Source of the DNA: a bacterium
GTDB lineage: Bacteria > Zhuqueibacterota > QNDG01
Direction: 5' to 3'
Length of the DNA stretch: 64,000 bases
NCBI GenBank assembly: GCA_021158245.1
Contig: JAGGVB010000176.1
Location: 8,105-72,104, forward strand
Below the pieces are notes generated by a model. That model saw nothing but the letters and a program-made list of their open reading frames with translations. It did no database searches and was not told the origin of the DNA. Each line of letters starts with the position of its first letter. Position 1 is the first letter of the stretch. Below are positions 3,334-42,358 of the stretch, piece by piece. The translations under genes and the position numbers were made by a program.

Positions 3334-3360
3334 TTTTATTTCCAGGAGGAAGATGTTATC

Positions 3361-14342: not shown

Positions 14343-14380
14343 AACTATTCCCCTTCCTCTACATCATAATTTCATTGTAA

Positions 14381-15853: not shown

Positions 15854-15882
15854 ATGTTTAAGACCTCCCTAATAATGAAATG

Positions 15883-16578
15883 TCATTTTTGTCCGTAATA
15901 GGCATCCGTGCCGTGTTTTCTTTGAAAATGTTTATTGATGAGTGTATTTTTCAAATAAGATACTTCAGGATTTATCTGCAGAGTCAGCGCAGCTATTTTT
16001 GCAATTGATTCCAGAATCTGACTATGCTTTACTGAATCCAGGGCAGTTGCGCCCCAGGTAAAGGGACCGTGGCCGGCAGCCAAAACCATCGTTACATCTT
16101 CAGTAGACAGGTTACGGAGCAGATTAACGATCTGTCTGCCCGTTTCAATTTCATAATCACCCCGGATCTGTTCATCGCTCAACATTTTTGTACAGGGCAC
16201 TTCCAGGGGTAAAAAATCAGCATGAGTCGTCCCCAGGACAGGGATTGGTTTCATTGCCTGGGCCCAGGCAGTCGCATAGGTCGAATGAGTATGAGTTATC
16301 CCGTCGATTCCAGGGATATTTTGATAAAGCACCAGATGTGTAGGAGCATCAGTAGAGGGTATTAGTTTACTATCAACAACAGCACCGTTAAAATCTACAA
16401 CAACCATATCCTGTTGTTTCATATCAGTATAAGCCAGGCCGCTGGGTTTTATGGCAAACACCCCCTTTGCCCGGTCAGCAGCGCTAACATTACCAAAAGT
16501 ACCAAAAACCAGTCCGCTTTTTGCCAGAGCCTGATTCGCTTCCCAGGCTTCTTCTTTTAGTGATTTATAACTGTTCAT
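15883..16578 (-). CDS. araD: L-ribulose-5-phosphate 4-epimerase.
   Basis: Class II aldolase/adducin fold, 231 aa. Alignable by eye to E. coli AraD (GNVSAADRAKGVFAIKPSG; THLVLYQ; HTHSTYATAWAQ; HGPFTWG; KHGTDAYYGQ at the C-terminus). Confidence 0.9.
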   Translation of the reverse strand: MNSYKSLKEEAWEANQALAKSGLVFGTFGNVSAADRAKGVFAIKPSGLAYTDMKQQDMVVVDFNGAVVDSKLIPSTDAPTHLVLYQNIPGIDGITHTHSTYATAWAQAMKPIPVLGTTHADFLPLEVPCTKMLSDEQIRGDYEIETGRQIVNLLRNLSTEDVTMVLAAGHGPFTWGATALDSVKHSQILESIAKIAALTLQINPEVSYLKNTLINKHFQRKHGTDAYYGQK

Positions 16579-16580
16579 GT

Positions 16581-18251
16581 CTATTCTCCTGCTGCTGTTT
16601 TTTCAATAAAAGCACCAAGCTCCTTATATTTTTCATATAGACGATCATATAGTTTCACATTCCCGGCATGGGGTATGTAGGTCTGTTCAAAACCCTGGCC
16701 CATTCTTTCTTGAGCGTCCTGCAGAGATGTGAAAATCCCAGCAGCAGTTGCACCTGCCATGGCACTGCCTAACGCGACAGTCTGTTCAGACCGAGTGATT
16801 CGCATAGGCATATTCAAAACATCAGAGATTGTCTGCATAATAAAAGGATTTTTTTTAGCTACTCCGCCCGTTCCGATAATACCATGAATGGGTATACCCT
16901 CACTTATAAATCGATCAACAATGGCTTTAGCTCCAAAAGCGGTAGCCTCAACTAGAGTTTTGAATATTCTGGATGCATCAGTTGATAAATTTAAGCCTGT
17001 TATACCCATTTTAAGCCTCTGGTTGGCATCCGGACTACGCCTGCCGTTAAGCCAGTCTACTGCAATAGGGCCCGAAGGATCTACTGGTAAGACTTCTGCT
17101 GCTTTTGACAGGGCAGGAATAATTTTATCTTCTAATTCCCCAAATCCGATACCATTACTTCCGTGGATTTCCTGCCGGGGAAAAGGAAACATCAGTATAT
17201 CGCGAAACCAGGCATAAACATCGCCAAATGATGATTGCCCTGCTTCCATACCCAGCATCCCTGGCAATACCGATCCGTCCACCTGGCCGCAAATACCATG
17301 TACCAGCCTGTTTTCGACATCTTTCATAGGCGCTACCAGAATATCACAAGTAGAGGTACCCATAACTTTGCATAGATGATATGGTTCTATCTGTGCTCCT
17401 ACCGCACCAAGATGTGCATCAAAAGCTCCGACCGCTACTTGGACGTCTGTTCCAAGTCCCAATCGTTCAGACCATTCCCTGCTTAAATTACCGGCAGACA
17501 CATCTGCAGTAAAGGTTTCAGAATAAAGCCTCTCCCGAAGCCCTGATAATCGATTGTCCAGAGATGAAAGGAATGTTTCAGGAGGCAAGCCCTTCCATGC
17601 AGTATGCCATAAAGCTTTATGCCCTGCTGCACATCTGCTGCGCTTAATAGCTGCTGCATCACTGTTTCCTGTAAGAAGCGCAGGCATCCAATCACAATGC
17701 TCCATCCAGGAATAGGCGGCATCTTTTACTTGGTTATCTTCCCGAAGAACGTGCAGGATTTTGGCCCAGAACCATTCGGAAGAATAGATTCCCCCGACAT
17801 ACTTTATATAATTATTCCCCGTACTGCTGCTGCAGGCAGCATTTATCTCTTCTGCTTCAGCGACTGCAGTATGGTCTTTCCATAATATAAACATGGCATT
17901 GGGATTGTTGCGGAATCTTTCATATAAAGCCAGAGGAACTCCTTTTTTATCAACTGCACAAGGCGTAGAGCCGGTAGTGTCAATGCCGATTGCCTTAACA
18001 GCGGAAGCTGTACTTTCAGGTGCTTGTGATAAAGCAGTTTTAACTGCAGTCTCAAATGCTTCTATATAATCCATAGGATGCTGCCGAAACTGATTAGCGG
18101 CAGGATCACAGTAACGACCCTCTTTCCAGCGTGCATATTCGCAGACTGCGGACGTAATTTCCCTGCCGTTATCAGAATCAACAATCAATATACGTACGGA
18201 ATCTGTTCCGAAATCAGCACCTATCACATAACGATTATCCATGACCGTCAT
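16581..18251 (-). CDS. araB: Ribulokinase (FGGY family).
   Basis: 556 aa with strong by-eye similarity to E. coli AraB (NQFRQHPMDYIEAFETAVKTAL; NPNAMFILWKDHTAVAEAEEI; YIGGIYSSEWFWAKILHV; ICGQVDGSVLPGMLGMEAGQSSFGDVYAWF). Confidence 0.9.
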   Translation of the reverse strand: MTVMDNRYVIGADFGTDSVRILIVDSDNGREITSAVCEYARWKEGRYCDPAANQFRQHPMDYIEAFETAVKTALSQAPESTASAVKAIGIDTTGSTPCAVDKKGVPLALYERFRNNPNAMFILWKDHTAVAEAEEINAACSSSTGNNYIKYVGGIYSSEWFWAKILHVLREDNQVKDAAYSWMEHCDWMPALLTGNSDAAAIKRSRCAAGHKALWHTAWKGLPPETFLSSLDNRLSGLRERLYSETFTADVSAGNLSREWSERLGLGTDVQVAVGAFDAHLGAVGAQIEPYHLCKVMGTSTCDILVAPMKDVENRLVHGICGQVDGSVLPGMLGMEAGQSSFGDVYAWFRDILMFPFPRQEIHGSNGIGFGELEDKIIPALSKAAEVLPVDPSGPIAVDWLNGRRSPDANQRLKMGITGLNLSTDASRIFKTLVEATAFGAKAIVDRFISEGIPIHGIIGTGGVAKKNPFIMQTISDVLNMPMRITRSEQTVALGSAMAGATAAGIFTSLQDAQERMGQGFEQTYIPHAGNVKLYDRLYEKYKELGAFIEKTAAGE

Positions 18252-18254
18252 CCT

Positions 18255-19292
18255 TTAATCTTTTTGGTAAAAATCTACATTTTCCCTGGTTATGATATCA
18301 ATAGGCATCATCACAGTCGGAGTCACCGCCTCATTTAAAACCACTTTTCTGAACAGCAAATAAATACCGCGATACCCTTGTTGGCGTGATTGCTGACTTA
18401 TAAGAAAATCAATTAAGCCCCGTTTTAAATAAGTAATATTTTCCCTGATGAGATCGTAACCAATCACATGGATTTTATCGGATTTATTCTGCTTCTCAAT
18501 TACCTGTGCAGCACAATATGTAAGAGCATGAGATATAAAGAGCCCCTTTACACCTGTATACTCTGTCAATATTGATTCGATTCCTTTACTGAGATATTGG
18601 ACACTGCCTTCAGGCGGAGTATCTATGATTACCGGTGCAGTCAGATTATTTTCTGAATAATACTCGGCAAAACCGTTAATTCTCTGCTTAATATGATAAT
18701 CACAGGAGAGCCCGCGAATGGCAACAATAGTGGACTGGCTGTCAGTCAGCAGACTCATCAGGCGGCCGGCTAAATATCCGCTGGCATAAGAATCCTGGAC
18801 GATACTGCATAATCCGTTACTATCCGGCACCGGCGAATCAAAGAATACACAGGGGATATTATCAGACAGCCGGTCGGCGAATTCTCTGGCAATTGCTGAT
18901 GAAGAAGGCGCCATTAAATAACCATCCAGTTTTGCCTGAAGAGCCTCTTCACAAGATTTAGAAAAAGACATGTTAGAATAACGGTCATATTGGAAATAAC
19001 GGATTGATATACGATGTGCCTCAAGCTCCTTTGCAGCCTTGTTTATACCGATAGAAGGCAGTTTCCAATAACCGCTGTCTTGTTCATACTCAGGCATTAT
19101 GACGCCGAATGTAAATGTTCTGGATAGTTTTAGCTGACGGGCAAAAATATTGGGCGTGTATTTGAGTTTATCAATAGCCTTGAGAACCCGGACCTCTGCA
19201 TTATGCGACACATTCCCCCGTTTGTGGAGCACACGGTCAACAGTACCAATGGAAACATCTGCTTGATCAGCGATCTCTTTTATAGTTGCCAT
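18255..19292 (-). CDS. LacI-family transcriptional regulator, likely controlling the downstream arabinose genes.
   Basis: N-terminal HTH MATIKEIADQADVSIGTVDRVLHKRGNVS plus a periplasmic-binding-protein-like sugar-binding core. First gene of the minus-strand block. Confidence 0.9.
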   Translation of the reverse strand: MATIKEIADQADVSIGTVDRVLHKRGNVSHNAEVRVLKAIDKLKYTPNIFARQLKLSRTFTFGVIMPEYEQDSGYWKLPSIGINKAAKELEAHRISIRYFQYDRYSNMSFSKSCEEALQAKLDGYLMAPSSSAIAREFADRLSDNIPCVFFDSPVPDSNGLCSIVQDSYASGYLAGRLMSLLTDSQSTIVAIRGLSCDYHIKQRINGFAEYYSENNLTAPVIIDTPPEGSVQYLSKGIESILTEYTGVKGLFISHALTYCAAQVIEKQNKSDKIHVIGYDLIRENITYLKRGLIDFLISQQSRQQGYRGIYLLFRKVVLNEAVTPTVMMPIDIITRENVDFYQKD

Positions 19293-19402
19293 TAAATTTT
19301 TCCTGTATGAACCGTAAAACTGTTAACGTACACAGAAAAGTAGAGAAACAAAGATCAAAAGTCAAGTATTTTATATAAATAACTTAGGGGCAGCACTATT
19401 TT

Positions 19403-19431
19403 TTGACTTTTATTCCTGTACATTGTATATT
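19403..19431 (+). promoter_or_regulatory. Sigma70-like promoter candidate for the DUF89 gene: TTGACT - 17 nt - TATATT.
   Basis: Hexamers at 19403-19408 and 19426-19431 with a 17-nt spacer, about 40 nt upstream of the ATG at 19473. The divergent intergenic region is shared with the LacI-family gene. Confidence 0.35.
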
Positions 19432-19472
19432 GTCGTCAGCCGGAAATACTATTAATTAGAGAGCCATAAAAA

Positions 19473-20330
19473 ATGAAATCCGACATCCAATGCCTTTACT
19501 GTCTAATCAAACAGGCATATAATACAGCCCGTATTGCCACATCTGACAAGAGTATCCAACGCAGGATATTAAACCTGATGGCTGACAAGATTCCTCAGGC
19601 CGACCTGTCTGAATCTCCGGCTGTTCTCTCAACACCTGTTTACAGCCTTGTCTCAGAAGTGACCGGGATTCCTGATCCCTATTATCAAATCAAACGACAG
19701 ACAAATCGGGAGGCAATGGCATTGATTCCTCAACTACATCCCCTCATCGACGCTGCTGCTGATCCACTTGATGCAGCCCTCCATTTGGCCGTGGCCGGCA
19801 ACATTATTGATCTTGGTATCGGACACGAATTTAATATTGCCGTAGATATAAAGAGCATCCTCCACGTACCCTTTGCAGTCAACAATGAGACCGACTTCCG
19901 CGAGGAACTGACTGCCGGTCGAAAACTGCTCTATCTGGGAGACAATTCCGGTGAGATCGTATTTGACCGCTTGCTGATTGAATATCTTCTGCAGTTTGAT
20001 CTTAAAATTACCTATGTTGTTAAGTCAGGACCGATTATTAATGATGTACTCATGGAAGATGCTGAAGAGGCCGGTATAACCTCACTGGTTCCTGTCATCA
20101 AAACAGGCTCCAGCGACATAGGAGTAAATTTTAATAATGCATCCGGATCATTTATAGAAGCCTTTGAATCTGCTGATGTCATCATCTCTAAAGGTCACGG
20201 TAATTTTGAATCATGTGAGCATCGCTCTGAAAACATCTATTTTCTCCTGAAGGCCAAATGTGAAGTGGTAGCTGATGCCCTGGGTGTAAATTTGGGTGAT
20301 ATTGTATTTAAGAGGAATGTTCAGAAATAA
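19473..20330 (+). CDS. DUF89/ARMT1-like protein (damage-control sugar-phosphate phosphatase family).
   Basis: Motifs YLGDNSGEIVFD (DNxGE) and ISKGHGNFES (KGxGNxE) recalled as DUF89 hallmarks. 285 aa. Confidence 0.65.
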   Translation: MKSDIQCLYCLIKQAYNTARIATSDKSIQRRILNLMADKIPQADLSESPAVLSTPVYSLVSEVTGIPDPYYQIKRQTNREAMALIPQLHPLIDAAADPLDAALHLAVAGNIIDLGIGHEFNIAVDIKSILHVPFAVNNETDFREELTAGRKLLYLGDNSGEIVFDRLLIEYLLQFDLKITYVVKSGPIINDVLMEDAEEAGITSLVPVIKTGSSDIGVNFNNASGSFIEAFESADVIISKGHGNFESCEHRSENIYFLLKAKCEVVADALGVNLGDIVFKRNVQK

Positions 20331-20412
20331 ATAAATTTTACCATAAAAAAAATCAGAATAGTTCATGATTTTCTTAAACCGTATCCTGTAAATTCTGTCT
20401 AATAAAATTTTT

Positions 20413-21981
20413 TTATAACAATTCCGCCCGTGCCCTGAAAGGATCATCTCCATTCAAACCGCGCACACGGGCACTAAGGGCATGAAACAGTTTTTTCTGT
20501 TTTTTATAGATAGAAACATTTTCAGGAATCGGCCTTCTGCGGCCTGCCTCATCCAGCTCCAGGAAAGGTGTAACAACTTCTTCAATGGGTTTAGATTCCC
20601 CCTTCTCTTTTATCCAGACCCAGGCCGCATGCAGAGCAGCACCCAGGGCGGCCCCTTCACCTTTAACCGGCAGAACTTCGGTATCAAACACATCTGCGAT
20701 GGTTTGGCACCAGGCTGGTGATTGAGAAAGCCCGCCGGTTAGCCGAATCTCTGTTGCTTCAATTTCCATTTTCTGAAAACCGTCAAAAATATTAAGTACA
20801 TGGCCTTCCAGAACCCCGCGGCAGAGAAACTGCGGAGTAAAATCATCCAACCCGAAACCAAAATAGAGAGGAGCAGCCTGAGGCAGGTCGGGAGTCCTTT
20901 CTCCCCCATACCAGGGGATGATGAGGCGGCCGCCGTTTCCTGCTTTAGTTTCTCCTATGATCCGGTTAAACGCATCATGATTAATGTCATATTTCCGTAG
21001 TGTTTCATTATATCCGCCTGCCATATTCGACACGCAAAGCAGCGGAAGATAATGCCCAGTACTATCGCAGAAGGATGCGATTTCACCGTCAGGGTCAATA
21101 AAGGGTTCTTCGCTGAAGGAAAAGGCAGTTCCGCTTGTACCAAGGCTTATTGTAACTATTCCCGGCATTACATTTCCCGTACCAACAGCGCTGTACATAT
21201 TATCACCGCAGCCCGCATCAACTGTACACTCGGATGAAAAACCGAATCTGTTAACCAGAAATCCGGACATCCTGCCGATTGATTGATCAGAAGGAAGAAC
21301 TTCAGGCAGCTTCTCTGATAAGCAGGGATCAATCGCTTTTATCACTTTTTCAGACCACGAGCCGGTGGCAGGATTCCAGAGGGCTGTCCCTGAAGTGTCT
21401 CCCGGTTCCATAACACGTACTCCGCCGGTAAGAAACCAGTTGATGTAATTGTGAACCAGGAACAAGGTATTCGTGCGAAGATACTGTTCAGGGTCATGCC
21501 GAACCATATGGAATATTTTCGCAGCTGTGTATCCTGTGCGCTGAGAATTGCCCACTTCTTTAATCATTGCCTCGGGACCGCCCAGTTTATCAGTGAGGAT
21601 GTCACACTCTTCCTGGGTGGAAAAATCATTCCAGAGTTTGCTGAATGGTAGAGTTAAATTACCTTCCTTGTCAAGAGCTACTAATCCATGCTGCTGGCCT
21701 GAAACTGAAATGGACCGAACCTGTCCGGCATCCACATTGCTTTTTTTCAGGTTAGCGAAAACCATGTTCACAGCCTCTATCCACATTTCAGGATTGGACT
21801 CAGATACTCCTTCTCCCCTGTCAGGCAGTACTCCGCTGTGAGTATGATATTGAGGCAAATCCGTATCGTAATTTACTGAGTCCACATAAACCACTTCTTT
21901 TAATTGCCAGTCGAGGATGACCAGCTTGCAGCTCTGAGTTGAGACATCAAGCCCTGCGAATAGAATACTCAAATTTTTCAC
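20413..21981 (-). CDS. FGGY-family carbohydrate kinase (xylulokinase-like).
   Basis: N-terminal LDVSTQSCKLVILD, GGERTP and C-terminal GGLSQSPAWCQTIADV motifs of FGGY kinases. 522 aa. Confidence 0.85.
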   Translation of the reverse strand: MKNLSILFAGLDVSTQSCKLVILDWQLKEVVYVDSVNYDTDLPQYHTHSGVLPDRGEGVSESNPEMWIEAVNMVFANLKKSNVDAGQVRSISVSGQQHGLVALDKEGNLTLPFSKLWNDFSTQEECDILTDKLGGPEAMIKEVGNSQRTGYTAAKIFHMVRHDPEQYLRTNTLFLVHNYINWFLTGGVRVMEPGDTSGTALWNPATGSWSEKVIKAIDPCLSEKLPEVLPSDQSIGRMSGFLVNRFGFSSECTVDAGCGDNMYSAVGTGNVMPGIVTISLGTSGTAFSFSEEPFIDPDGEIASFCDSTGHYLPLLCVSNMAGGYNETLRKYDINHDAFNRIIGETKAGNGGRLIIPWYGGERTPDLPQAAPLYFGFGLDDFTPQFLCRGVLEGHVLNIFDGFQKMEIEATEIRLTGGLSQSPAWCQTIADVFDTEVLPVKGEGAALGAALHAAWVWIKEKGESKPIEEVVTPFLELDEAGRRRPIPENVSIYKKQKKLFHALSARVRGLNGDDPFRARAELL

Positions 21982-29224: not shown

Positions 29225-31921
29225 ATGAAGTCTGTTAAACACAATAATATTGATCTGCGGCTGCAGTATATTTTTGGCGGTATTGTATTTTTTATTGCAT
29301 TTATTACTTATGCAGCTTCAGTGGCGCCTACAACATCTTTTTGGGATTGCGGAGAATTTATTGCATGCTCCAGAATTCTTGGTGTGATGCATCCGCCCGG
29401 ATCCCCCCTGTATCTTCTAATCGGCAGGATATTAACTATGCTGCCGTTTGTAAAAGATATTGGCCTCAGGATTAATATGTTTTCAGTATTTATAAGTGCT
29501 TCAACAATGCTGCTTACTTTTCTTATTATTATCAAGCTTATTAAAAGATGGAGAGGAGAGCCACGCAGTTTTGAGGACAGAATTATCATGTTCGGAGGAG
29601 CTGTATTCGGTGCACTTGCCTTAACTTTCAGTGACAGTGTATGGTTTAATTCCGTTGAAGCTGAGGTTTATGCTTTTTCTCTTTTTTTTACTGCTTTGGT
29701 TGTATGGCTTGCTCTTAAGTGGGAAGAGTATTCGTTACAAACTTCGGGCCTTCTTCTCGTATTTTTTATATTCTATCTTTTCAGCCTGGCAGCAGGAGTG
29801 CATCTTTTAAACATACTTACTTTTCCGTTTATGCTTCTTATTGCCTATTTCCATGACAATAAGACGGTAAAAAATCTCCTTCTCCTGCTTACTATTCAGG
29901 CAGCAGTCCCGCTAATCCTTTACGTTTTATTCTTTCAGTATAATCCTGAAACCATGAACTACAGAGAGATGATTGCTCATCAGGCAAAAGCAGGCAGTTT
30001 TATGAAAATATTCGGCCTGATATGGGTAGTTGTGACTCTTGTCTATGTTTATATTAAAGACAGGGATGTATTTAAGCTATGGTGGATTGTACCTGCTTTG
30101 ATTCTTATAGGCTATTCGACATACTCGCTGATCTATATAAGAGCCCATCTGGCCCCTCCGATTAATGAAAATAATCCGTCCACTCTGGAGCAGATGCGAA
30201 GCTATCTCGAGAGAAAGCAGTATGGAGAAGAGGATATGCTCCTCACCTTCTTTTATCGAAAAGCCAGTTTTTGGACGTACCAGATAAATAAAATGTATAC
30301 AAGATATTTTGCATGGCAGTTTATCGGTAAAGGAGTACTGCTTGACAGCCACGATAGAATAATCAAAATTATAAGCCTGCGGGGCCTTTACGGTATTCCG
30401 TTTTTAATCGGATTATGGGGAGCAGTGCACCATTTTTTCCGTGACTGGAAAAGAGCTCTTGCTGTAAGCGTTCTGTTTTTTCTTACAGGCCTGGCAATTA
30501 TTATCTATCTAAATCAGCCTGATCCGCAGCCAAGGGAGAGAGATTACTCATATGTTGGTTCCTTTTTTGCTTTTGCATTGTGGATAGGAATAGGTTTTGC
30601 TGGTATAATGGAGTGGATAGCAGAGTTCTTAAAGGATAAGAAACGACTTAAAAAAATAGTCTATGTTGCGGTTTCAATTGTTCTTTTTATTGCAGTGCCT
30701 CTCAATATGTATGCATTTAATCATAGGGAACATTCAAGAGCCGGCAATTATGTTGCTCATGATTATTCCTATAACATATTGCAGACTTGTGAACCCAATG
30801 CAATTATCTTTACAAACGGAGATAATGACACGTTCCCCTTGTGGTTTTTACAGGAAGTTTACGGTGTCAGAAAGGATGTTCGGGTAGTTAATTTATCTCT
30901 TTTAAATACTCACTGGTATATTAAACAGCTAAGAGATTATGATCCTAAAATACCGATTGGTTTAAAAGACGAAGTTATAAACACTCTTTATGCAATGCCG
31001 TGGAAAGCACAGAAGGTTGAAATACCTGTTCCTTCTGATGTTGTTAAGAAATTAAAGGCTTCCTTAAAACCTGAGCTTGCATCTAAAGTAAAAAGCAATT
31101 TTATTTTTAACTTTAGACCTACCTTTAATACAGGAGGCGGGAAAGGTGTAAGGGTTCAGGATCTTATGATTCTAAGAATTCTTCAGTCTGTTCAATGGAG
31201 GCGTCCTGTTTATTTTGCAATGACAGTTTCCAGGCAGAATAAAATAGGCCTTGACAGATATCTTCGTCTTGACGGCCTGGCTTTCAAAATTCTGCCCTAT
31301 CCTGCGGAAGAGGTTGATCCTGAAATATTGGAAAACAATTTGCTTGATAAATTCGAGTATAAAGGGCTGAATGACCCCAAGGTGTATTACAACACAAATA
31401 TTCAGAATTTGCTTCAGAATTACAGGTCTACTTTTATGGAGCTTGCACGTTACTATATAGAAAATGACAATAAAAAGAAAGCAGCTGAAATTCTGACAAA
31501 GATGGGGGAGATTATTCCTGATACTCATGTGCCTTATTCTGATAAAAGGCAGGCGCTTATTGTTTCAGATATATACAAACGTGCAGGATTGGACCCTGCG
31601 TTTAATGCCCGGAGTGAAAGGATAGTAAAAGGCCACTTACCTTCCATTGCAGAGCAGACCTGGCTTGCAGGCTACTATGCACAGGTTATGCAGAATTGGC
31701 AAAAAGCAGAGGAAATTTATCAGGAGATAATCAATTATAACCCCAACTCTCCAGATGCTTTTGCAGGGCTTTTCCAGGTTTACAAAATGTCCGGGCAGTA
31801 CAATAAAGCTGCCTCACTTCTTGAGGATTGGATTATGAGGCATCCGGGAGACAAAGGTGCACAGCAGGAGCTGGATAATCTTAAGAAACTTGCTGCAAAA
31901 GATTCGACAAATGGCAGATAA
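29225..31921 (+). CDS. DUF2723 (TMEM260-like, predicted GT-C fold glycosyltransferase) polytopic membrane protein with a C-terminal TPR array.
   Basis: N-terminal signature APTTSFWDCGEFIACSRILGVMHPPGSPLYLLIGRI, 10 or more TM helices over ~500 aa, then ~250 aa of TPR-like repeats (YYAQVMQNWQKAEEIYQEIINYNPNSPDAFAGLFQVYKMSGQYNKAASLLE). 898 aa. Confidence 0.8.
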   Translation: MKSVKHNNIDLRLQYIFGGIVFFIAFITYAASVAPTTSFWDCGEFIACSRILGVMHPPGSPLYLLIGRILTMLPFVKDIGLRINMFSVFISASTMLLTFLIIIKLIKRWRGEPRSFEDRIIMFGGAVFGALALTFSDSVWFNSVEAEVYAFSLFFTALVVWLALKWEEYSLQTSGLLLVFFIFYLFSLAAGVHLLNILTFPFMLLIAYFHDNKTVKNLLLLLTIQAAVPLILYVLFFQYNPETMNYREMIAHQAKAGSFMKIFGLIWVVVTLVYVYIKDRDVFKLWWIVPALILIGYSTYSLIYIRAHLAPPINENNPSTLEQMRSYLERKQYGEEDMLLTFFYRKASFWTYQINKMYTRYFAWQFIGKGVLLDSHDRIIKIISLRGLYGIPFLIGLWGAVHHFFRDWKRALAVSVLFFLTGLAIIIYLNQPDPQPRERDYSYVGSFFAFALWIGIGFAGIMEWIAEFLKDKKRLKKIVYVAVSIVLFIAVPLNMYAFNHREHSRAGNYVAHDYSYNILQTCEPNAIIFTNGDNDTFPLWFLQEVYGVRKDVRVVNLSLLNTHWYIKQLRDYDPKIPIGLKDEVINTLYAMPWKAQKVEIPVPSDVVKKLKASLKPELASKVKSNFIFNFRPTFNTGGGKGVRVQDLMILRILQSVQWRRPVYFAMTVSRQNKIGLDRYLRLDGLAFKILPYPAEEVDPEILENNLLDKFEYKGLNDPKVYYNTNIQNLLQNYRSTFMELARYYIENDNKKKAAEILTKMGEIIPDTHVPYSDKRQALIVSDIYKRAGLDPAFNARSERIVKGHLPSIAEQTWLAGYYAQVMQNWQKAEEIYQEIINYNPNSPDAFAGLFQVYKMSGQYNKAASLLEDWIMRHPGDKGAQQELDNLKKLAAKDSTNGR

Positions 31922-31988
31922 GTGTAAGCTGAAAAATATATTTTTAAACAGGAAAGACTTGTGATTTTGATATGGAAGGCTGCACACA

Positions 31989-33029
31989 ATGGGCGAAGGG
32001 AAAAAACCGGAAGTATCTGTTGTTATTCCCCACTGGAAAGGGGAGGATATTCTTCGTCATACACTGGAGTCATTGCGGAACACAGAATACAGCAATTTTA
32101 ATGTTATTGTTGTAAACAATAATTCGCCTGATAAAAGTATCGAAGTAGTTCACAGGGATTTTCCTGAAGTAAGGGTTGTTGATTCGGAAATTAATTTGGG
32201 CTTTGCTGCAGGATGTAATCTTGGCATCAGAGAAGCAAGTACAAAGTATGTTGCTCTTTTAAACAATGACACTGAGGTTACACCCATGTGGCTTGCTTAT
32301 CTTGTAGATGTATTGGAAAAAGATTCTGAGATAGCTGCAGTACAGCCTAAATTGCTCTGGTTTTATAACCGGAATACTTTTGATTACAGCGGTGGAGCAG
32401 GCGGAGAAATTGATATTTTCGGATACCCGTTTACTCTCGGCCGTGTTTTTGAATTTATTGAACAGGACATTGGCCAGTACGATACCCAGAGAGAGATTTT
32501 TTGGGCTTCGGGAGCTGCTGTTGTTATTCGCAGGTCAGTACTGAATTATACAGGCCTGTTAGATGAGGCTTTTTTTGCTCATATGGAGGAGATAGACCTT
32601 CAATGGCGTTTTCATATTGCAGGATTTAAAGTAGTTAACTGCCCCCGGGCAGTTGTATATCACCGTGCAGGCGCTACTCTTGGTAAAGAAAATGTACGGA
32701 AGATGATTTTGAACCACAGAAATAATCTTGTTATGCTGCTGAAAAATTATCAAATGGAAACTATTGTCTGGTTAATGCCTGTAAGAGTGCTGCTGGAGAT
32801 TATAACAGTTGGTTTTGGTGTAATATTACTGGATTTCAAGCGTTCCTTCGCAGCATTTTACGGTTTATTCAGTGTTATAGGTTTTATTCCTCATATATTA
32901 AGAGAGAGAAAAAAGGTAAGTGCAATTCGGTCTGTTTCTGATAAAATGATAAGAAATAAGATGTTCAGGGGAAGTATTGTAAAGGAACATTTTATAAAAG
33001 GGAAGCGTACAACATCTGAATTGTTATAA
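31989..33029 (+). CDS. Family-2 glycosyltransferase with C-terminal TM helices.
   Basis: VSVVIPHWKGEDILRHTLESL...VIVVNNNSPD and a DxD-like NNDTEV, with hydrophobic segments at the C-terminus. 346 aa. Confidence 0.85.
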   Translation: MGEGKKPEVSVVIPHWKGEDILRHTLESLRNTEYSNFNVIVVNNNSPDKSIEVVHRDFPEVRVVDSEINLGFAAGCNLGIREASTKYVALLNNDTEVTPMWLAYLVDVLEKDSEIAAVQPKLLWFYNRNTFDYSGGAGGEIDIFGYPFTLGRVFEFIEQDIGQYDTQREIFWASGAAVVIRRSVLNYTGLLDEAFFAHMEEIDLQWRFHIAGFKVVNCPRAVVYHRAGATLGKENVRKMILNHRNNLVMLLKNYQMETIVWLMPVRVLLEIITVGFGVILLDFKRSFAAFYGLFSVIGFIPHILRERKKVSAIRSVSDKMIRNKMFRGSIVKEHFIKGKRTTSELL

Positions 33030-33044
33030 ATTTATGGTGGATTA

Positions 33045-33998
33045 TTGGTAAATAAAGGTCTAATTCAGCTATCGAAAATTTTATTCAGCGGTTTCCTGAT
33101 AGGTTTCCTGCTCTACAAGATCGGAATTAACAAAATTGCAAATCTGTTAATATCTGCTGATCTGTACTGGCTTTCTGCTGCAATAGTTCTTTTCCTGACA
33201 AGCCATCTAATGGGAAGCGTTCAGTGGCACCTTCTGCTTAAACATGAAGGTGTTGATATTAAATGGCCGAAAGTTCTTTCATTCTATTTTGTAGGGTTGT
33301 TTCTAAACAATTTTTTGTTAAGCAGCCTTGGCGGGGATCTGTTCAGAATGGCTGATGTAAAGCGTTATTCGGAAAATTTTTCAGGCGCTGTAGCTACTGT
33401 ATTTCTGGACAGGTTGGCAGGGTTTTTCCTGCTTTCGACTCTTGCGGTTATTTCCGGCCCGTGGATAATAATTCAGAGAGGATTACATTCAAAACTTACG
33501 TTTTTAATTTTCATGCTCGTCTGCTCCTGGATACTTCTGCTTTTTATTCTTTTTAATAAGAATTTTGCACGGCCTTTTGCAGCAGTTTTTACAAAGATAG
33601 TTCCTGACAGATTTTCGTTAAAGGCTCAGGAGATATATCAAAAAATACACTCTTTTGGCAGAGCAAAAGATGTTGTCGGGAAAATACTTGTAATTTCATG
33701 CATAATTCAGAGCCTTAGAATTCTGACTCACTACATGATTGCAAGATCTTTCGGGATATCTGTATCACCTGTGAATTTCTTTCTTATTGTGCCGGTTATT
33801 GCAATTGCGGCCAGCCTTCCTGTAAGTTTTGGAGGTATTGGAATAAGAGAGCAGGCAGGAGTGATTCTTTTTGGTATGATCGGGGTATCAGCGATAAGAG
33901 CGTTTTCAATTGAATTTATTGCGTATATAGTTGCAGTTATAACAAGTCTCCCAGGGGGAGTAATTTTTGCAGTCCGCCGTGGAGTTGACAAAATATGA
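33045..33998 (+). CDS. UPF0104 / LPG_synthase_TM-like (flippase-like) integral membrane protein.
   Basis: About 8 TM helices, N-terminal FSGFLIGFLLYKIGINKIANLL and a C-terminal GIGIREQAGVILFG-type segment typical of the MprF-flippase-like family. 317 aa. Confidence 0.65.
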   Translation: MVNKGLIQLSKILFSGFLIGFLLYKIGINKIANLLISADLYWLSAAIVLFLTSHLMGSVQWHLLLKHEGVDIKWPKVLSFYFVGLFLNNFLLSSLGGDLFRMADVKRYSENFSGAVATVFLDRLAGFFLLSTLAVISGPWIIIQRGLHSKLTFLIFMLVCSWILLLFILFNKNFARPFAAVFTKIVPDRFSLKAQEIYQKIHSFGRAKDVVGKILVISCIIQSLRILTHYMIARSFGISVSPVNFFLIVPVIAIAASLPVSFGGIGIREQAGVILFGMIGVSAIRAFSIEFIAYIVAVITSLPGGVIFAVRRGVDKI

Positions 33999-35569: not shown

Positions 35570-36292
35570 ATGGGATTAATGAAAATTCTTGTTATAATAC
35601 CGACGTACAATGAGAACGATAACATACGTCTTATAATTCCTCAAATACTCGGCACATATCCTTCAATTGATGTGCTTGTTGTTGACGATAATTCTCCGGA
35701 CGGTACAGGTAACACTGTTGAGGAACTATGTGCTTCAGATCCCCGTGTACATTTGATTTCACGTGAAAAAAAGATGGGCCTCGGTACGGCATATGTTGAG
35801 GGCTTTAGATATGCATTGGATCATGATTATGATTTAATATTTGAGATGGATGCGGATTTTTCCCACGACCCAAATGAGATACCACGATTTATCGAAGCGT
35901 CAAAAGAGTATGATCTTGTTGTGGGGTCAAGATATGTCAGCGGAGTTAATGTTATAAATTGGCCTATGTCACGCCTTCTTCTTTCGTGGCTTGCAAATGT
36001 TTATACAAGAGTAGTGACCGGACTGCCTTTAAAGGATGCTACAAGCGGTTTTAAATGTTTTCGCAGAAAAGTCATAGAAGATATTGATCTAGGCAATATG
36101 CAGTCTGACGGATATGGATTTCAGATAGAGATTCATTACAGAGTTTGGAAAAAAGGATTCAAGATAAAAGAGATTCCGATTGTATTTGTTGATCGCCGTG
36201 TGGGGATATCCAAAATGAATACAGGTATTATTAATGAAGCTGCATTACTTGTATGGAAATTAAGAATAATGGGAATTTTCAAAAGAATTTAA
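35570..36292 (+). CDS. Soluble GT2 polyprenol-phosphate hexose synthase (DPM1/Ppm1-like; dolichol-phosphate mannosyltransferase family).
   Basis: ILVIIPTYNENDNI...LVVDDNSPDGT and the DPM1-type motif EMDADFSHDP. 240 aa with no C-terminal TM helices, unlike GtrB/ArnC. Confidence 0.85.
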   Translation: MGLMKILVIIPTYNENDNIRLIIPQILGTYPSIDVLVVDDNSPDGTGNTVEELCASDPRVHLISREKKMGLGTAYVEGFRYALDHDYDLIFEMDADFSHDPNEIPRFIEASKEYDLVVGSRYVSGVNVINWPMSRLLLSWLANVYTRVVTGLPLKDATSGFKCFRRKVIEDIDLGNMQSDGYGFQIEIHYRVWKKGFKIKEIPIVFVDRRVGISKMNTGIINEAALLVWKLRIMGIFKRI

Positions 36293-36314: not shown

Positions 36315-38396
36315 ATGAAAAAACTTTCAGTTATAATTGTTAATTATAATGTAAAGCCCTTTTTGCAGCAAGCTCTTGCTTCTGTATCCAGGGCTTTAAA
36401 AGGTATGGATTCCGAGATTATTGTTGTTGATAACGGGTCAGGCGATGGAAGTGTGCAGCTTGTACAGAGAGAATTTCCTGATGTAAATATCATACGGAAT
36501 CAGGAGAATGCGGGATTTGCAAAGGCAAATAATCAGGCAATAAAAATTGCAGACGGTGAAGTTATAGCACTCGTTAATCCTGATACGCTCATAAGAGAAG
36601 ATACATTTAATGTATGCCTTGATTATTTGGAATCCCATAACGATGTCGGCGCTGTTGGGTGTAAAATTCTCAATCCTGATGGCACTTTACAATTAGCATG
36701 CAGACGAAGTTTTCCTTCTCCATGGGTAGCTTTTACAAAAATTGTCGGCCTGAACGCAATTTTTCCTAAAAGTAAAATTTTCGGAAGATACAATCTTACG
36801 TATCTGGATCCTGAAATAATAACAGAAGTGGAAGCAATATCAGGATCATTTATGGCAGTCAAAAGAGAAGTTATTGATCAGACAGGCATGCTTGATGAAC
36901 GTTTTTTTATGTACGGGGAAGACCTTGACTGGTGCTACAGAATTCATAAGAACGGGTGGAAGATAGTTTACCTGCCGGGCACGGAAATTATTCATTACAA
37001 GGGACAGTCTGCAAAAGAGGCCCCATTTGACAGTCTCAGGGTTTTTTACAATGCAATGCTTCTATTTGTAAAGAAACATATGGGTGGAGGCCTGTCTCTT
37101 ATTCCCCAGTGGATACTAATTCTCGGAATCTGGATAAGAGGTTCGATATCAATAGCAGCGCAATGGGGAAAGAGGCTTTTTGTACCGATCATTGATGCTC
37201 TTCTGCTTTCCGCAGGAATGATAATTTCGATTTTTATAAGATTTTCTGCTGCAGGAAGAGCTGGTTTCTACGTTTCCGCTTATAGTTTGGTAATTCCGGT
37301 TTATTCTGCTGTATGGCTGATATCTCTTGCAATAACAGGCCTTTACAGAAAAAAGAATTATAATATCTCAAGAACATTTACAGGAGTAATAACAGGGCTG
37401 ATTGCTAATACATCGCTGACTTTCTTTTTTCCACAGTATGCTTACTCCAGACAGGTTATTCTTGTATCCGGGGCCATAAATCTTGTACTTCTATCAGGCT
37501 GGCGCATTCTGATACAGTTTTTGCCAAGAATAGAAAAGATTCCATTTCTCAGAAATATTGGGATAACTCTTGCCAAGCGAAGGCTTATTGTTGTTGGTAC
37601 GGGAGCTGTAACAACAGACATAATCACACGGCTTAATAAAAGGATTGAAAAGAGCGGAGAGATTGCAGGGAGGCTTGCAGTAAAAGAAGATGATTTTAAT
37701 AATGCGGCTGATTGCGAGATACCGATTCTTGGGACCATAAAGGAGATAGTCCGGCTTGTTAAGGTTCATAAAATTGATGAATTAATTATTCCTCCCGGAA
37801 CTCTGTCGTACAAACAGATGCTTTCGATTGTCGGCCGTACTCGTGATACAGGCCTTGATATTAAAATTATACCAAAGGACCTTGATGTGTTAATCGGCAG
37901 ATCAGTTGTTGAATCCATTGATGAGATTCCGTTTGTTGATCTGGAATACAGAGTATTTTTGTGGCATAACCGGGTATTAAAAAGAGCGCTTGATTTAAGT
38001 ATTGCATTAATTTTTTCCCCCATTTCCTTGCTTCTTTGGTTCATAGTCCTTATTTTACCGGATTACAAGTTAGTGAAAGTGATATTCCCCTGTCCGGGCG
38101 GGAACATTTTGATCAGAGAGCTTTTTTTGCATGACAAAAAGGTTTACGGTATTTTTCGTACAATTTTCAGCATGGTATATGTTCTGAAGGGTAAAATGAG
38201 TATTGTAGGCCTTGATAATGAATCCGATGTATTGAAAGAAACAGTATGGTGCAGGCCGGGAATAACAAGCCTTTTTAAGGTTTCGGGAGAAGAACAGGAC
38301 ACGCAGGAAGAAAGACTGAGATACTATTTTTATTATATTCGGAATTATTCGGTTTTATTGGATATAGAAATAATGCTGAAATCAATTTTCTCCTGA
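36315..38396 (+). CDS. Fusion protein: N-terminal GT2 + polytopic TM region + CoA_binding_3-like Rossmann + C-terminal bacterial-sugar-transferase (phosphoglycosyl transferase, PglC/WbaP-like) domain that appears catalytically degenerate.
   Basis: GT2: LSVIIVNYNVKPFLQQAL...VVDNGSGDGS...YGEDLDW. CoA-binding-like: RRLIVVGTGAVTTDI. PGT-like: KRALDLSIALIFSPISLLLWFIVLIL...YVLKGKMSIVG...PGITSLFKVSG...YYIRNYSVLLDIEIMLKSI. In the PGT-like part the expected DE dyad and PRP motif are absent (FS.. and LDN in their place). Confidence 0.75.
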   Translation: MKKLSVIIVNYNVKPFLQQALASVSRALKGMDSEIIVVDNGSGDGSVQLVQREFPDVNIIRNQENAGFAKANNQAIKIADGEVIALVNPDTLIREDTFNVCLDYLESHNDVGAVGCKILNPDGTLQLACRRSFPSPWVAFTKIVGLNAIFPKSKIFGRYNLTYLDPEIITEVEAISGSFMAVKREVIDQTGMLDERFFMYGEDLDWCYRIHKNGWKIVYLPGTEIIHYKGQSAKEAPFDSLRVFYNAMLLFVKKHMGGGLSLIPQWILILGIWIRGSISIAAQWGKRLFVPIIDALLLSAGMIISIFIRFSAAGRAGFYVSAYSLVIPVYSAVWLISLAITGLYRKKNYNISRTFTGVITGLIANTSLTFFFPQYAYSRQVILVSGAINLVLLSGWRILIQFLPRIEKIPFLRNIGITLAKRRLIVVGTGAVTTDIITRLNKRIEKSGEIAGRLAVKEDDFNNAADCEIPILGTIKEIVRLVKVHKIDELIIPPGTLSYKQMLSIVGRTRDTGLDIKIIPKDLDVLIGRSVVESIDEIPFVDLEYRVFLWHNRVLKRALDLSIALIFSPISLLLWFIVLILPDYKLVKVIFPCPGGNILIRELFLHDKKVYGIFRTIFSMVYVLKGKMSIVGLDNESDVLKETVWCRPGITSLFKVSGEEQDTQEERLRYYFYYIRNYSVLLDIEIMLKSIFS

Positions 38397-38430: not shown

Positions 38431-39384
38431 ATGGATTTTATTCTTGATTTTGAAAAACCAATTGTTGAGCTGGAGGAAAAGATAGGTGAGATGAAGGCCA
38501 TTTCTGCCAATGAAAATGGCGTTTTATCGGATGAAATCTCGCGGCTTGAATTGAAACTTTATAAATTAATGGAAGATACATATTCCAAACTTAACAGATG
38601 GCAGCGGGTTCAGCTTGCGAGGCATCCTTTGAGGCCTTATTCGCTTGATTATATCCCGAGAATATTTACTGATTTTATCGAACTTCACGGGGACAGGCAG
38701 TTCAGAGATGATCCTGCGCTTGTCAGCGGCATGGCAAAGCTTGACGGAAGGTCCGTAGTTGTATTGGGACAGCAGAAGGGACGTACAACAAAGGAGAAAT
38801 TATACAGAAATTTTGGTATGATGCATCCGGAAGGGTATCGTAAAGCAATGCGTATTATGAGGCTGGCAGCAAAATTTAATAAACCGATAATCGTATTTGT
38901 AGATACACCCGGGGCATACCCTGGAATAGGAGCGGAAGAGAGGGGACAGGGAGAAGCAATTGCAAGAAATCTGTTTGAGATGTCACGCCTCAAAGTTCCT
39001 ATTATAGTTGTGATAATCGCAGAGGGAGCTTCCGGAGGTGCTTTGGGAATAGGAGTAGGCGACAGAGTACTCATGATGGAAAACAGCTGGTACTCTGTTA
39101 TTTCACCTGAAGGCTGTGCAGCAATTTTATGGCGGGATTCAGCCAAGGCTTCCAAAGCTGCGGAGGCTTTAAAACTTGCGGCTCAGGATTTAATTGAACT
39201 CGGTGTAATTGATGATATAATAAAAGAACCCGTTGGAGGTGCTCATAGAAATTACGATGAAGCAGCAAGGCTTGTAAAAATCAACATAATAGATGCCTTG
39301 AATGATCTTCTTTTAATACCTCCTGATGAATTGATAGAACAGAGGCTGGAAAAGTATGGTAAAATGGGATTTTTTAAGGAATGA
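38431..39384 (+). CDS. accA: Acetyl-CoA carboxylase carboxyltransferase alpha subunit.
   Basis: AccA fold motifs FVDTPGAYPGIGAEERGQGEAIARNL and IIAEGASGGALGIGVGD. 317 aa. Confidence 0.95.
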   Translation: MDFILDFEKPIVELEEKIGEMKAISANENGVLSDEISRLELKLYKLMEDTYSKLNRWQRVQLARHPLRPYSLDYIPRIFTDFIELHGDRQFRDDPALVSGMAKLDGRSVVVLGQQKGRTTKEKLYRNFGMMHPEGYRKAMRIMRLAAKFNKPIIVFVDTPGAYPGIGAEERGQGEAIARNLFEMSRLKVPIIVVIIAEGASGGALGIGVGDRVLMMENSWYSVISPEGCAAILWRDSAKASKAAEALKLAAQDLIELGVIDDIIKEPVGGAHRNYDEAARLVKINIIDALNDLLLIPPDELIEQRLEKYGKMGFFKE

Positions 39385-39815
39385 ATGTTAAAAACAATAC
39401 TAATATCTATACTCACAGAGTGATATATGCTGATACGGACCAAATGGGAATTGTGTATCATGGAAGATATTTTGAGTGGCTGGAAGCTGCGCGTACTGAA
39501 CTTATGCGTATTCATGGAATGTCCTACAATACTCTTGAAGCGCGAGGGATTTCTCTTCCTGTAATAGAAGCTTCATGCAGGTACATCAGGGCATTTAAGT
39601 ATGATGATATTGTAAATATTATTGCAGAAATTGAAGATGTTACGCGTTCAAGATTAAAAATTAAGTATGAACTGTACTGTGAAGGTGATGAAACAGCAAG
39701 GGTAAAAGGCGTTACTGTACATTGCTATATGAATCGTCAGGCTCGTGCAATAAGAGCGCCGAGGGACCTTTTATTATTTTTTAAATCTTTTCAAGTTCCG
39801 GAAAACATGGAATAA
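39381..39815 (+). CDS. Hotdog-fold acyl-CoA thioesterase (YbgC/4HBT family).
   Basis: HRVIYADTDQMGIVYHGRYFEWLEAART motif. 144 aa. 4-nt overlap with accA. Confidence 0.8.
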   Translation: MNVKNNTNIYTHRVIYADTDQMGIVYHGRYFEWLEAARTELMRIHGMSYNTLEARGISLPVIEASCRYIRAFKYDDIVNIIAEIEDVTRSRLKIKYELYCEGDETARVKGVTVHCYMNRQARAIRAPRDLLLFFKSFQVPENME

Positions 39816-41938: not shown

Positions 41939-42358
41939 ATGAGATCAGGGAGGTTAATCGTGGCAAAAATTCTTGTGGTTGATGATGAAGCTCCGTTCAG
42001 GTCATTTTTGTCCGATGTTATCAAGAGGATTAAACATCAAGCTGTAGAGGCTGAAAACGGAAGAGTAGCGTGGGATATCTACCAAAAAGAGAAGATAGAT
42101 ATTTGCTTAGTTGATGTAAATATGCCTGAGATGGATGGCATTGGTTTTCTCGATAAAGTAAAAAAAGAGGATCCTGCTTCAATAGTAATAATGATGACAG
42201 GCTTTCCTACAGCAGAAACTATTATTGAAACTATTGAAGATGACGGGTTTACCTACATTTCCAAACCTGTAGATGTCCCTGTTATAATAGATTTAATTGA
42301 GAGGGGGCTTGCTGCGCGTAAAAAGCGTATTGCAGAATTTAAAAATAAAAAAGTGTAG
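41939..42358 (+). CDS. Stand-alone CheY-like response-regulator receiver protein.
   Basis: ILVVDDEAPFR...DICLVDVNMPEMDG...K (phospho-acceptor Asp context and conserved Lys). 139 aa with no output domain. Confidence 0.85.
   Translation: MRSGRLIVAKILVVDDEAPFRSFLSDVIKRIKHQAVEAENGRVAWDIYQKEKIDICLVDVNMPEMDGIGFLDKVKKEDPASIVIMMTGFPTAETIIETIEDDGFTYISKPVDVPVIIDLIERGLAARKKRIAEFKNKKV

Follow-up and report, generated by a model that had tools for sequence, protein, structure and literature searches.

Monotopic phosphoglycosyl transferases (monoPGTs) are studied as gatekeepers of bacterial glycoconjugate synthesis, and annotation and similarity networks generally take any Bac_transf match as an initiating enzyme. 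The Asp of their Asp-Glu dyad acts as the nucleophile and forms a covalent intermediate with the phosphosugar. In PglC, the active site is centered on Asp93-Glu94 (PMC10186338), a dyad that WbaP conserves (PMC10942596). The large phosphoglycosyl transferases (Lg-PGTs), which include Salmonella enterica WbaP (PDB 8t53), Escherichia coli WcaJ and Streptococcus pneumoniae CpsE, contain in order a four-helix transmembrane (TM) bundle, a CoA_binding_3 domain of unknown function (DUF), a beta-hairpin, a re-entrant helix and the PGT fold. WbaP is an obligate dimer via the DUF hairpin, its DUF binds UMP/UDP, and the roles of the four-helix bundle and the DUF are still being worked out (PMC10942596). 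In the Bi-PGT class (O'Toole et al. 2021, as outlined in PMC10942596), a catalytic PGT domain is fused to another pathway enzyme. Here, we describe an open-reading frame (ORF) at positions 36315-38396 of the + strand in a 64,000-nucleotide stretch of DNA (hereafter, the window; positions 8,105 to 72,104 of contig JAGGVB010000176.1, GenBank assembly GCA_021158245.1) from a bacterium of the Zhuqueibacterota. From ORF reading, Pfam, NCBIfam, AlphaFold2 (AF2) and Foldseek, its 693-residue product consists of a family 2 glycosyltransferase (GT2) joined to a complete, catalytically degenerate Lg-PGT module of the WbaP/WcaJ type.

The fusion protein and its relatives resemble Lg-PGTs in the parts listed above and in their order, with homology over the whole module (20-27% identity over 420-470 residues to an Ignavibacteriota Lg-PGT), and they retain KRxxD, the helix-break proline, MSxVG, PGxTG and the C-terminal Asp. 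Unlike Lg-PGTs, they lack the Asp-Glu dyad and P-R-P, have 26-55 core residues deleted and carry an added N-terminal GT2. The equivalents of Lys7, Arg8, Ser23-Pro24 and Asp169 of the small monoPGT PglC of Campylobacter (PDB 5W7L, 8e37 and 8g1n) are conserved in the family, whereas PglC D93-E94 lie opposite non-acidic residues. As in the Bi-PGTs, a monoPGT-type domain here carries a pathway enzyme, the GT2, at its N-terminus; both Bi-PGT domains are functional as described, whereas the PGT half of the present family is degenerate throughout and the fusion is at most monofunctional. No description of this fusion family or of any degenerate monoPGT was found in the literature searched, which excluded the O'Toole et al. 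2021 network paper, and PMC11626204 makes no mention of fusion, dyad, inactive or GT2. Pseudoenzyme modules are familiar, and a phylum-spanning dead Lg-PGT fused to a GT2 appears to be undescribed.

Loss of the catalytic residues

A profile built from 29 C-termini of the family was run against PglC and WbaP structures with HMMER and matched both PglC 8e37 (E 4.9e-23) and WbaP 8t53 (E 2.6e-19), bearing out the by-eye matches to the PglC/WbaP/WcaJ C-terminal domain on which the initial annotation had proposed a GT2 fused to a PGT-like domain without catalytic motifs. In the profile alignment, the family segment KRALDLS... lay opposite 'LKRviD' of PglC and WbaP, 'lkllPlllavlkGklslvG' lay opposite PglC 'LDELPQLFNVLKGDMSFIG', and PGITSL... 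lay opposite 'PGITGLAQV'. In the same alignment, PglC 'prpll' was an insertion relative to the family, and PglC residues ~50-96 had ~20 counterparts.

A second alignment, made using MAFFT with E. coli K-12 WcaJ from NC_000913, placed WcaJ D362/E363, which correspond to PglC D93-E94, at R615/T616 (38157-38162, + strand), and WcaJ P380-R381-P382 at L633-D634-N635 (38211-38219, + strand), where P-R-P follows MSxVG. The peptide of the dyad region, YGIFRTIFSMVYVLKGKMSIVGLDN, was read directly at 38145-38219, and the proposed replacement of P-R-P by LDN held in both the alignment and the reading. Neither alignment placed an Asp-Glu dyad or a P-R-P at the catalytic positions, and the agreement of the HMMER-profile and MAFFT alignments indicates that both motifs are lost from the window protein. 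Pfam likewise supported the proposed fusion. Canonical PGT chemistry would be unavailable to the fused domain, and the loss of that chemistry is well supported by the aligned residues.

The spacing from the KR pair to G626, the conserved Gly of VLxG, was also reduced, at ~70 residues in the window protein compared with 99 in WcaJ. Across the family, this spacing was 43-47 or 60-73 residues (80-89 in a few members), the 60-73 class being that of the window protein; the corresponding loss from the catalytic core was 26-55 residues in the family and ~30 in the window protein. By spacing, column identity and nonsynonymous divergence, the decayed core (residues 583-622; 38061-38180, + strand) is the least conserved stretch of the protein, and it is ~30 residues short of WcaJ. 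A full-length catalytic core, including the Arg88-bearing region, is found neither in the window protein nor in the family. A tblastn search of the window with WcaJ returned no intact PGT, although it also missed the PGT-like domain of ORF 36315-38396 itself, which profiles alone detect. The 693-residue protein is a homolog and fold member of the monoPGT superfamily with Lg-PGT architecture, but it lacks every feature examined that defines an active PGT and should not be classed as a phosphoglycosyl transferase.

Distribution of the fusion and order of motif loss

At least 120 full-length relatives with 41-100% identity and the same Pfam architecture are present in the protein database, and ~200 full-length relatives with 38-100% identity were examined overall. 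A scan of species-representative genomes gave at least 596 pattern-matched candidates, and the best 80, which were inspected, were all full-length (query residues ~1-692); the candidates beyond these were picked up by GT2-domain peptide patterns with tblastn, and some of them may be less than full-length fusions. The record titles of the best 80 loci named KSB1 (Zhuqueibacterota), Calditrichota, Ignavibacteriota, Ca. Kryptonium (Kryptoniota), Neomarinimicrobiota and Gemmatimonadota, together with loosely labelled metagenome-assembled genomes, and all of the named lineages checked belong to the FCB group (NCBI).

Motifs were counted in 85 genome-derived sequences and in 194 motif-anchored sequences, the latter count being independent of any multiple alignment, and 68 sequences were used for column conservation. 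The dyad was D-E in none of the 85 genome-derived sequences, with a single acid in eight, and in none of the 194 motif-anchored sequences, where 11 had one acid and 183 had neither; 'FDRLP' and 'LEKSP' are examples with a single acid. An exact PRP was present in 2 of the 194. The position of the PRP arginine, residue 634 of the window protein (38214-38216), was Glu or Asp in 154 of 194, a conserved reversal of charge. An exhaustive HMMER search with residues 259-693 against 1.84 billion cluster representatives (50% identity) gave 621 proteins at E<=1e-10. Among the best 147 of these, 58 carried the GT2 motif 'GEDxDW' and none of the 58 had a DE-dyad motif, while the 28 with both DE and PRP were unfused canonical Lg-PGTs of 456-494 residues, all scoring below ~107 bits.

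The relatives form a decay series. The least reduced, P0129 and the Gemmatimonadota member L079, have near-canonical core spacing; P0129 keeps VGPRP with E-K at the dyad, and L079 has H-R at the dyad. Both motifs and ~30 residues are missing from the KSB1 and Calditrichota types, and ~55 residues from the Ignavibacteriota and Kryptoniota types. This series shows that the dyad was lost first, PRP next and then 30-55 residues of the core. As intact motifs were absent from the orthologs, the degeneration is ancient and family-wide, and the module is a dedicated one rather than the product of recent local decay.

The alternative, that an ordinary bifunctional GT2-PGT has become a pseudogene in the source genome only, was refuted by the family-wide motif loss together with the low ratio of nonsynonymous to synonymous substitution rates (dN/dS), and its probability is practically nil. 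An intact GT2-Lg-PGT fusion of the kind it would start from does exist, P0213, whose Bac_transf match covers profile positions 1-178 of 179 with both DE and PRP, but this protein is only 23% identical and belongs to a different GT2 subfamily. The substitutions and deletions are shared by ~200 relatives down to 38% identity in at least six FCB lineages, and the ORF is uninterrupted with dN/dS of 0.09. P0213 (782 residues) and P0229 (754 residues) represent a second GT2-Lg-PGT fusion lineage; the dyad positions of P0229 read G-D and its PRP is kept, which suggests that the PGT half of its lineage may also be beginning to degenerate.

A different possibility is that the PGT-like domain has remained enzymatic, through a re-invented active site or by catalysing another reaction, for example, via the conserved Glu or Asp at the former P-R-P arginine. 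The presence of that acid in the middle of the PRP-equivalent triplet in 154 of 194 members would suit such a site, as would the single dyad acid kept by 11 of 194, the combination of PRP with an E-K dyad in P0129 and the strong constraint on the C-terminal subdomain. We nevertheless regard it as very improbable, given that the stretch in which an active site would be expected is the least conserved part of the protein, without a single column at 90% identity or above, and spans 43 to 89 residues in the family against 99 in WcaJ. No acid within this stretch is conserved across clades, and Glu/Asp634 itself is replaced in many Ignavibacteriota-type members.

As the family demonstrates, loss of its catalytic residues need not prevent a whole Lg-PGT from being retained through divergence that spans hundreds of millions of years. 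Some members carry JGI labels such as 'sugar transferase' or 'lipopolysaccharide/colanic/teichoic acid biosynthesis glycosyltransferase', and automatic labels of this kind would mis-assign pathway initiation in genomes of KSB1, Calditrichota, Ignavibacteriota, Kryptoniota, Marinimicrobia and Gemmatimonadota. The fusions also provide a natural experiment on the non-catalytic parts of Lg-PGTs, with the decay series showing what the retained function can spare.

Domain architecture and predicted structure

ORF 36315-38396 is uninterrupted in a single frame, and its surroundings are an ordinary housekeeping stretch of a chromosome with ~39% GC. The parts of the protein are, in order, the GT2, a four-helix membrane bundle, a CoA_binding_3 domain and a Bac_transf-like domain. 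In Pfam, the GT2 matched Glycos_transf_2 (PF00535) over residues 5-128 (E 1e-24, 87.8 bits against a cutoff of 23.3) and Glyco_tranf_2_3 (PF13641) over residues 4-235 (78.4 bits against a cutoff of 27). CoA_binding_3 (PF13727) matched residues 344-520 (E 2.4e-12), while Bac_transf (PF02397) matched residues 620-692 only, corresponding to profile positions 94-175 of 179 (E 1.3e-11, 44.9 bits against a cutoff of 27). In NCBIfam, the exopolysaccharide Lg-PGT model TIGR03025 aligned residues 293-580 with profile positions 2-282 of 445 (E 3e-39), and the last 70 residues gave a separate match to Lg-PGT models. All Lg-PGT models scored far under their curated NCBIfam cutoffs (TIGR03025, 135.5 against 295.6 bits; TIGR03023, 105 against 411; TIGR03022, 78 against 403). 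The gap in Lg-PGT homology lies precisely at the expected location of the catalytic core, a stretch that both Pfam and HMMER leave unaligned.

An alignment-based AF2 model of the 693-residue protein, made with 68 homologs, had a predicted local distance difference test score (pLDDT) of 84.9 and a predicted TM-score (pTM) of 0.74. This confident prediction showed the expected elements, with a helix-break-helix at 550-580 among them. In Foldseek, WbaP 8t53 (E 4e-13) was the solved structure that matched it best. The segment between the GT2 and the DUF, residues 236-405 (37020-37529, + strand), comprises an interface helix and a membrane helix bundle homologous to the N-terminal four-TM bundle of Lg-PGTs, as judged by the TIGR03025 alignment from residue 293, AF2 and hydropathy. 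The AF2 helices in this region are 259-310, 326-340, 351-369 and 373-405. The first of these (37089-37244) was modelled as one continuous helix of 52 residues, of which 259-285 are hydrophobic yet contain Arg274 and are probably an interfacial helix ahead of TM1. The CoA_binding_3 or Lg-PGT 'DUF' domain follows at residues ~406-535 (37530-37919, + strand), Rossmann-like by PF13727 and by the alternating strands and helices in the AF2 model. With PF13727, TIGR03025 and the AF2 helices in agreement, the CoA_binding_3-like segment and about four TM helices that the initial annotation had placed between the GT2 and the PGT-like domain were recovered.

At the position of the WbaP hairpin, a beta-hairpin (37920-37961, + strand) was predicted from AF2 strands 533-535 and 538-542, with column identity (0.66) above that of its flanks. 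The re-entrant membrane helix, residues 550-582 (37962-38060, + strand), was assigned from the HMMER alignment to PglC and WbaP and from AF2, in which helix 550-566 is followed by a break and helix 568-580; it contains K556-R557-x-x-D560, with KRALD read directly at 37980-37994, and a break at S568-P569. Beyond the decayed core, the retained C-terminal PGT subdomain occupies residues 623-693 (38181-38393, + strand) and carries VLKGKMSIVG, RPGITS and YYIRNYSVLLDIEI, in keeping with the PF02397 match over 620-692 and a dN/dS of 0.061.

Conservation and selection

Eight residues of the Lg-PGT module, K556, R557, D560, G626, G632, G649, Y674 and D683, were invariant in both the 68- and the 85-sequence alignments, and a helix-break Pro lay at offset 13 or 17 from the Lys in 193 of 194 sequences, as in S568-P569 of the window protein. 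K556, R557 and D683 correspond to PglC Lys7, Arg8 and Asp169 (with the +4 numbering offset of the 8e37 chain). In PglC, a salt bridge between Lys7 and Asp169 fastens the re-entrant helix onto the globular domain, Arg8 binds the lipid headgroup and Ser23-Pro24 breaks the re-entrant helix (PMC6133551). An N-terminal re-entrant helix with a Lys-Arg pair and a (Ser/branched-chain amino acid)-Pro motif, as defined in that study (PMC6133551), is present here, and from the aligned positions the salt-bridge pair would be retained as K556/D683.

Mean column identity across the 68 sequences was 0.75 in the GT2, 0.57 in the TM bundle, 0.53 in the DUF, 0.66 in the hairpin, 0.45 in the re-entrant helix and 0.61 in the C-terminal subdomain, while in the former catalytic core (583-622) it was 0.35, with no column at or above 90%. 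Substitution rates were estimated by the Nei-Gojobori method from the window gene and one homolog of 83% identity (L089), giving dN/dS of 0.094 for the whole gene; the GT2 alone gave 0.064 and the C-terminal PGT subdomain 0.061. In the 40-codon decayed core, dN was 0.288, 3-5 times that of other regions; dS there was saturated (2.26) and dN/dS unreliable, so the raised dN alone was used. The gene is under purifying selection, and the fold, membrane anchor, DUF and hairpin are kept by selection without PGT chemistry.

The GT2 half

The GT2 domain (residues 1-235; 36315-37019, + strand) has a GT-A fold and is the most conserved region of the protein by Pfam, invariant columns, alignment with the chondroitin synthase K4CP, dN/dS and Foldseek, the last matching the N-terminal domain to GT-A enzymes with a probability of 1.00. 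Invariant in the 68 sequences were D39-N40-x-S42-x-D44, N88-P89-D90, G201-E202-D203-L204-D205-W206 and H227-x-K229-G230. The description of this domain as intact-looking stood, given these invariant motifs, whereas the assignment of YGEDLDW as its DxD-like motif did not: in the K4CP alignment, N88-P89-D90 lies opposite D-S-D and is the DxD-equivalent, with Asn in place of the first Asp, while the YGEDLDW region lies opposite 'GGEDNEF'. The GT2 half is apparently active, as judged from these residues. A processive synthase of the cellulose or hyaluronan synthase type was considered and rejected, as no QxxRW was seen in the ORF translation or family consensus and structural matches were poor (Foldseek root-mean-square deviations of 14-19 A and TM-scores of 0.24-0.34 against 7sp8 and 5ej1).

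Possible role of the non-catalytic module

We consider it probable that the GT2 is active and rides on an Lg-PGT chassis without catalytic function, which would anchor it, dimerise it or dock it next to partner enzymes or to substrates linked to polyprenyl phosphate. The C-terminal two thirds would be a complete Lg-PGT that no longer performs phosphosugar transfer and serves instead as the chassis. An even number of TM helices would separate the GT2 from the remnant PGT domain and leave both on the cytoplasmic side, and the re-entrant and interface helices would hold the two at the inner leaflet, the site of polyprenyl-phosphate-linked substrates. The hairpin and the DUF could still provide dimerisation and perhaps nucleotide sensing. 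As for the GT2, the acceptor to which it adds a sugar would be linked to polyprenyl-(pyro)phosphate, and the reaction would belong to a core pathway for envelope glycoconjugates in FCB-group bacteria. The exact role of the dead module is one that we infer. A scaffold or anchor for the glycosylation machinery of the locus, or undecaprenyl phosphate (UndP) binding without priming, both proposed in the initial annotation, is plausible and would fit the synteny. Because of gene order, two likely and not mutually exclusive partners suggest themselves, a dolichol-phosphate-mannose synthase (DPMS)-like protein without TM segments encoded upstream and, in Ignavibacteriota-type genomes, a live Lg-PGT. 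If the chassis does dock partner enzymes, it would offer a concrete handle on the organisation of membrane glycan-assembly complexes.

Gene order was counted in related genome loci, 79 with room downstream and 72 for the upstream neighbor. In 20 of 24 'short-type' (Ignavibacteriota/Kryptoniota-type) loci, an intact canonical Lg-PGT gene lay 0.7-3.8 kb upstream, the other four having less than 2.1 kb of upstream sequence. This Lg-PGT matches Bac_transf over the full length (232 bits), carries the motif HLDEIPQLWNVLSGHMSLVGPRP (HLDEIPQ...VGPRP) and is confined to the clade with the most reduced fused PGT remnant. In L084, the intact Lg-PGT is encoded at 2661-4064 (with equivalents in L051-L087), just upstream of the trio of DPMS-like, fusion and accA genes, and this locus, the only annotated one of the set, has GT4 genes and a DegT aminotransferase beside it.

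The dead Lg-PGT could be the heteromeric pseudoenzyme partner of a genuine Lg-PGT, joined to it by the DUF hairpin and TM bundle in a PGT/GT2 metabolon or in a 'prozyme'-like form of regulation. A dead paralog next to a live one, as in the Ignavibacteriota-type loci, recalls the trypanosome AdoMetDC prozyme, a dead-paralog activator (PMC5201418). The tight WbaP dimer is held by the DUF hairpin (PMC10942596), and the hairpin at the corresponding position here is retained and well conserved. Homodimerisation would account equally well for that conservation, however, and an intact PGT was found in none of the 44 'long-type' (KSB1/Calditrichota/Gemmatimonadota) loci with at least 3 kb upstream, nor in the window. 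We regard such a heteromer as unlikely, even with the upstream Lg-PGT genes of the most reduced clade in its favor.

In human DPM1/DPM2/DPM3 and actinobacterial Ppm1/Ppm2, which make polyprenyl-phosphate sugars, catalytic subunits depend on non-catalytic membrane partners. The gene directly upstream of the fusion gene in the window (35570-36292, + strand) encodes a DPMS/Dpm1-like polyprenyl-phosphate glycosyltransferase catalytic domain of 240 residues with no TM segment, assigned from PDB 5mlz, NCBIfam and synteny. It matched Pyrococcus Dol-P-Man synthase 5mlz (E 1.4e-33) over residues 23-244 only, without the TM helices of the Pyrococcus enzyme, and also gave NCBIfam matches of the AglJ/PpgS/ArnC type. 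Without TM segments, this synthase needs a route to the membrane. A DPMS-like gene was directly upstream of the fusion gene in 57 of 72 loci, with 6-380 nt between the aligned segments, and the two annotated genes overlap in two loci.

The arrangement resembles the DPM and Ppm systems in that a TM-less Dpm1-like catalytic protein is encoded beside a membrane protein without that activity, and the fusion protein might act as a membrane receptor that tethers and activates the soluble Dpm1-like subunit, as DPM3 does for human DPM1 and Ppm2 for mycobacterial Ppm1, with the remnant PGT supplying polyprenyl phosphate. A TMEM260-like protein and a flippase-like protein encoded in KSB1-type loci, the latter also in Gemmatimonadota, would suit this arrangement. 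Unlike DPM3 and Ppm2, to which it has no sequence relationship, the fusion protein is linked to its supposed subunit by adjacency, the sole basis of the proposal, and 15 of 72 loci have no adjacent DPMS-like gene. A receptor would also leave unexplained the fusion of an intact and extremely conserved GT2, and we consider this explanation quite doubtful.

Several observations also weigh against the GT2-on-chassis reading. Neither partner is universal in cis, with an intact PGT in 0/44 long-type loci and the adjacent DPMS-like gene missing in 15/72. The conserved acid in place of the P-R-P arginine in 154/194 is compatible with a re-invented active site. The UndP-binding arginines of PglC are Arg88 and Arg145 (PMC10519829), and their equivalents are kept in part only: a basic residue near the Arg145 position, found in 148 of 176 members, is absent from the window protein, and 29 of 194 sequences have no basic residue in the eight positions ahead of the dyad site. 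Given this partial retention, polyprenyl-phosphate binding by the module is unproven.

A bolder extension, which we put forward as speculative and improbable, is that the dead Lg-PGT, as a subunit dedicated to regulation or assembly, serves the initiation of polyprenyl-phosphate glycans and is the first monoPGT pseudoenzyme. As a heterodimer with a live Lg-PGT, as a tether for the DPMS-like protein or as both, it would couple loading of the carrier lipid with the glycosyl transfer that follows, perhaps with the DUF as a gate that senses uridine nucleotides, in a core pathway of the envelope shared among FCB-group phyla.

Neighboring genes and other observations in the window

Upstream of the DPMS-like gene, the window encodes a TMEM260-like GT-C glycosyltransferase with a C-terminal tetratricopeptide repeat region (29225-31921, + strand), which matched the human TMEM260 O-mannosyltransferase 9rql (E 9e-14), a GT2 with two C-terminal TM segments (31989-33029, + strand) and a flippase-like LPG_synthase_TM protein (33045-33998, + strand). 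To our knowledge, bacterial TMEM260 homologs are uncharacterised. This block, 29225-33998, is kept in KSB1-type loci, and in Gemmatimonadota the flippase-like, DPMS-like and fusion genes are contiguous. Together with the DPMS-like gene, the block has the look of a polyprenyl-phosphate-sugar-dependent periplasmic glycosylation system.

Downstream, the next gene is accA (38431-39384, + strand), as it is in all 79 loci. It is usually followed by a 4HBT thioesterase gene (39381-39815 in the window) and then a small Trm112-like zinc-ribbon ORF (after 39815 in the window). No functional reason was found for this very stable link, across several phyla, between a glycosyltransferase and accA of fatty-acid synthesis. 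A few genes further downstream, at 41939-42358, the window encodes a single-domain response regulator that recurs in L005 and L090; a 2025 study (mBio, PMC12802240) reports that a regulator of this single-domain type binds an initiating PGT directly and thereby activates it.

Elsewhere in the window, 12651-21981 is a sugar-utilisation block mostly on the - strand, with a GC content of 0.42-0.46 compared with ~0.39 elsewhere in the window. It encodes an SSF symporter, a fucose-isomerase-like protein, a class II aldolase, two FGGY kinases, a LacI-type regulator and, on the + strand, an ARMT1-like phosphatase, and it may have been acquired horizontally. At 7422-10430, a 1002-residue protein is encoded whose sole match, over residues 442-816, was to PPDK_N, the ATP-binding domain of pyruvate phosphate dikinase, so that long stretches at both termini have no assigned domain, and a similar gene for a 1004-residue protein lies near the fusion gene in L006.

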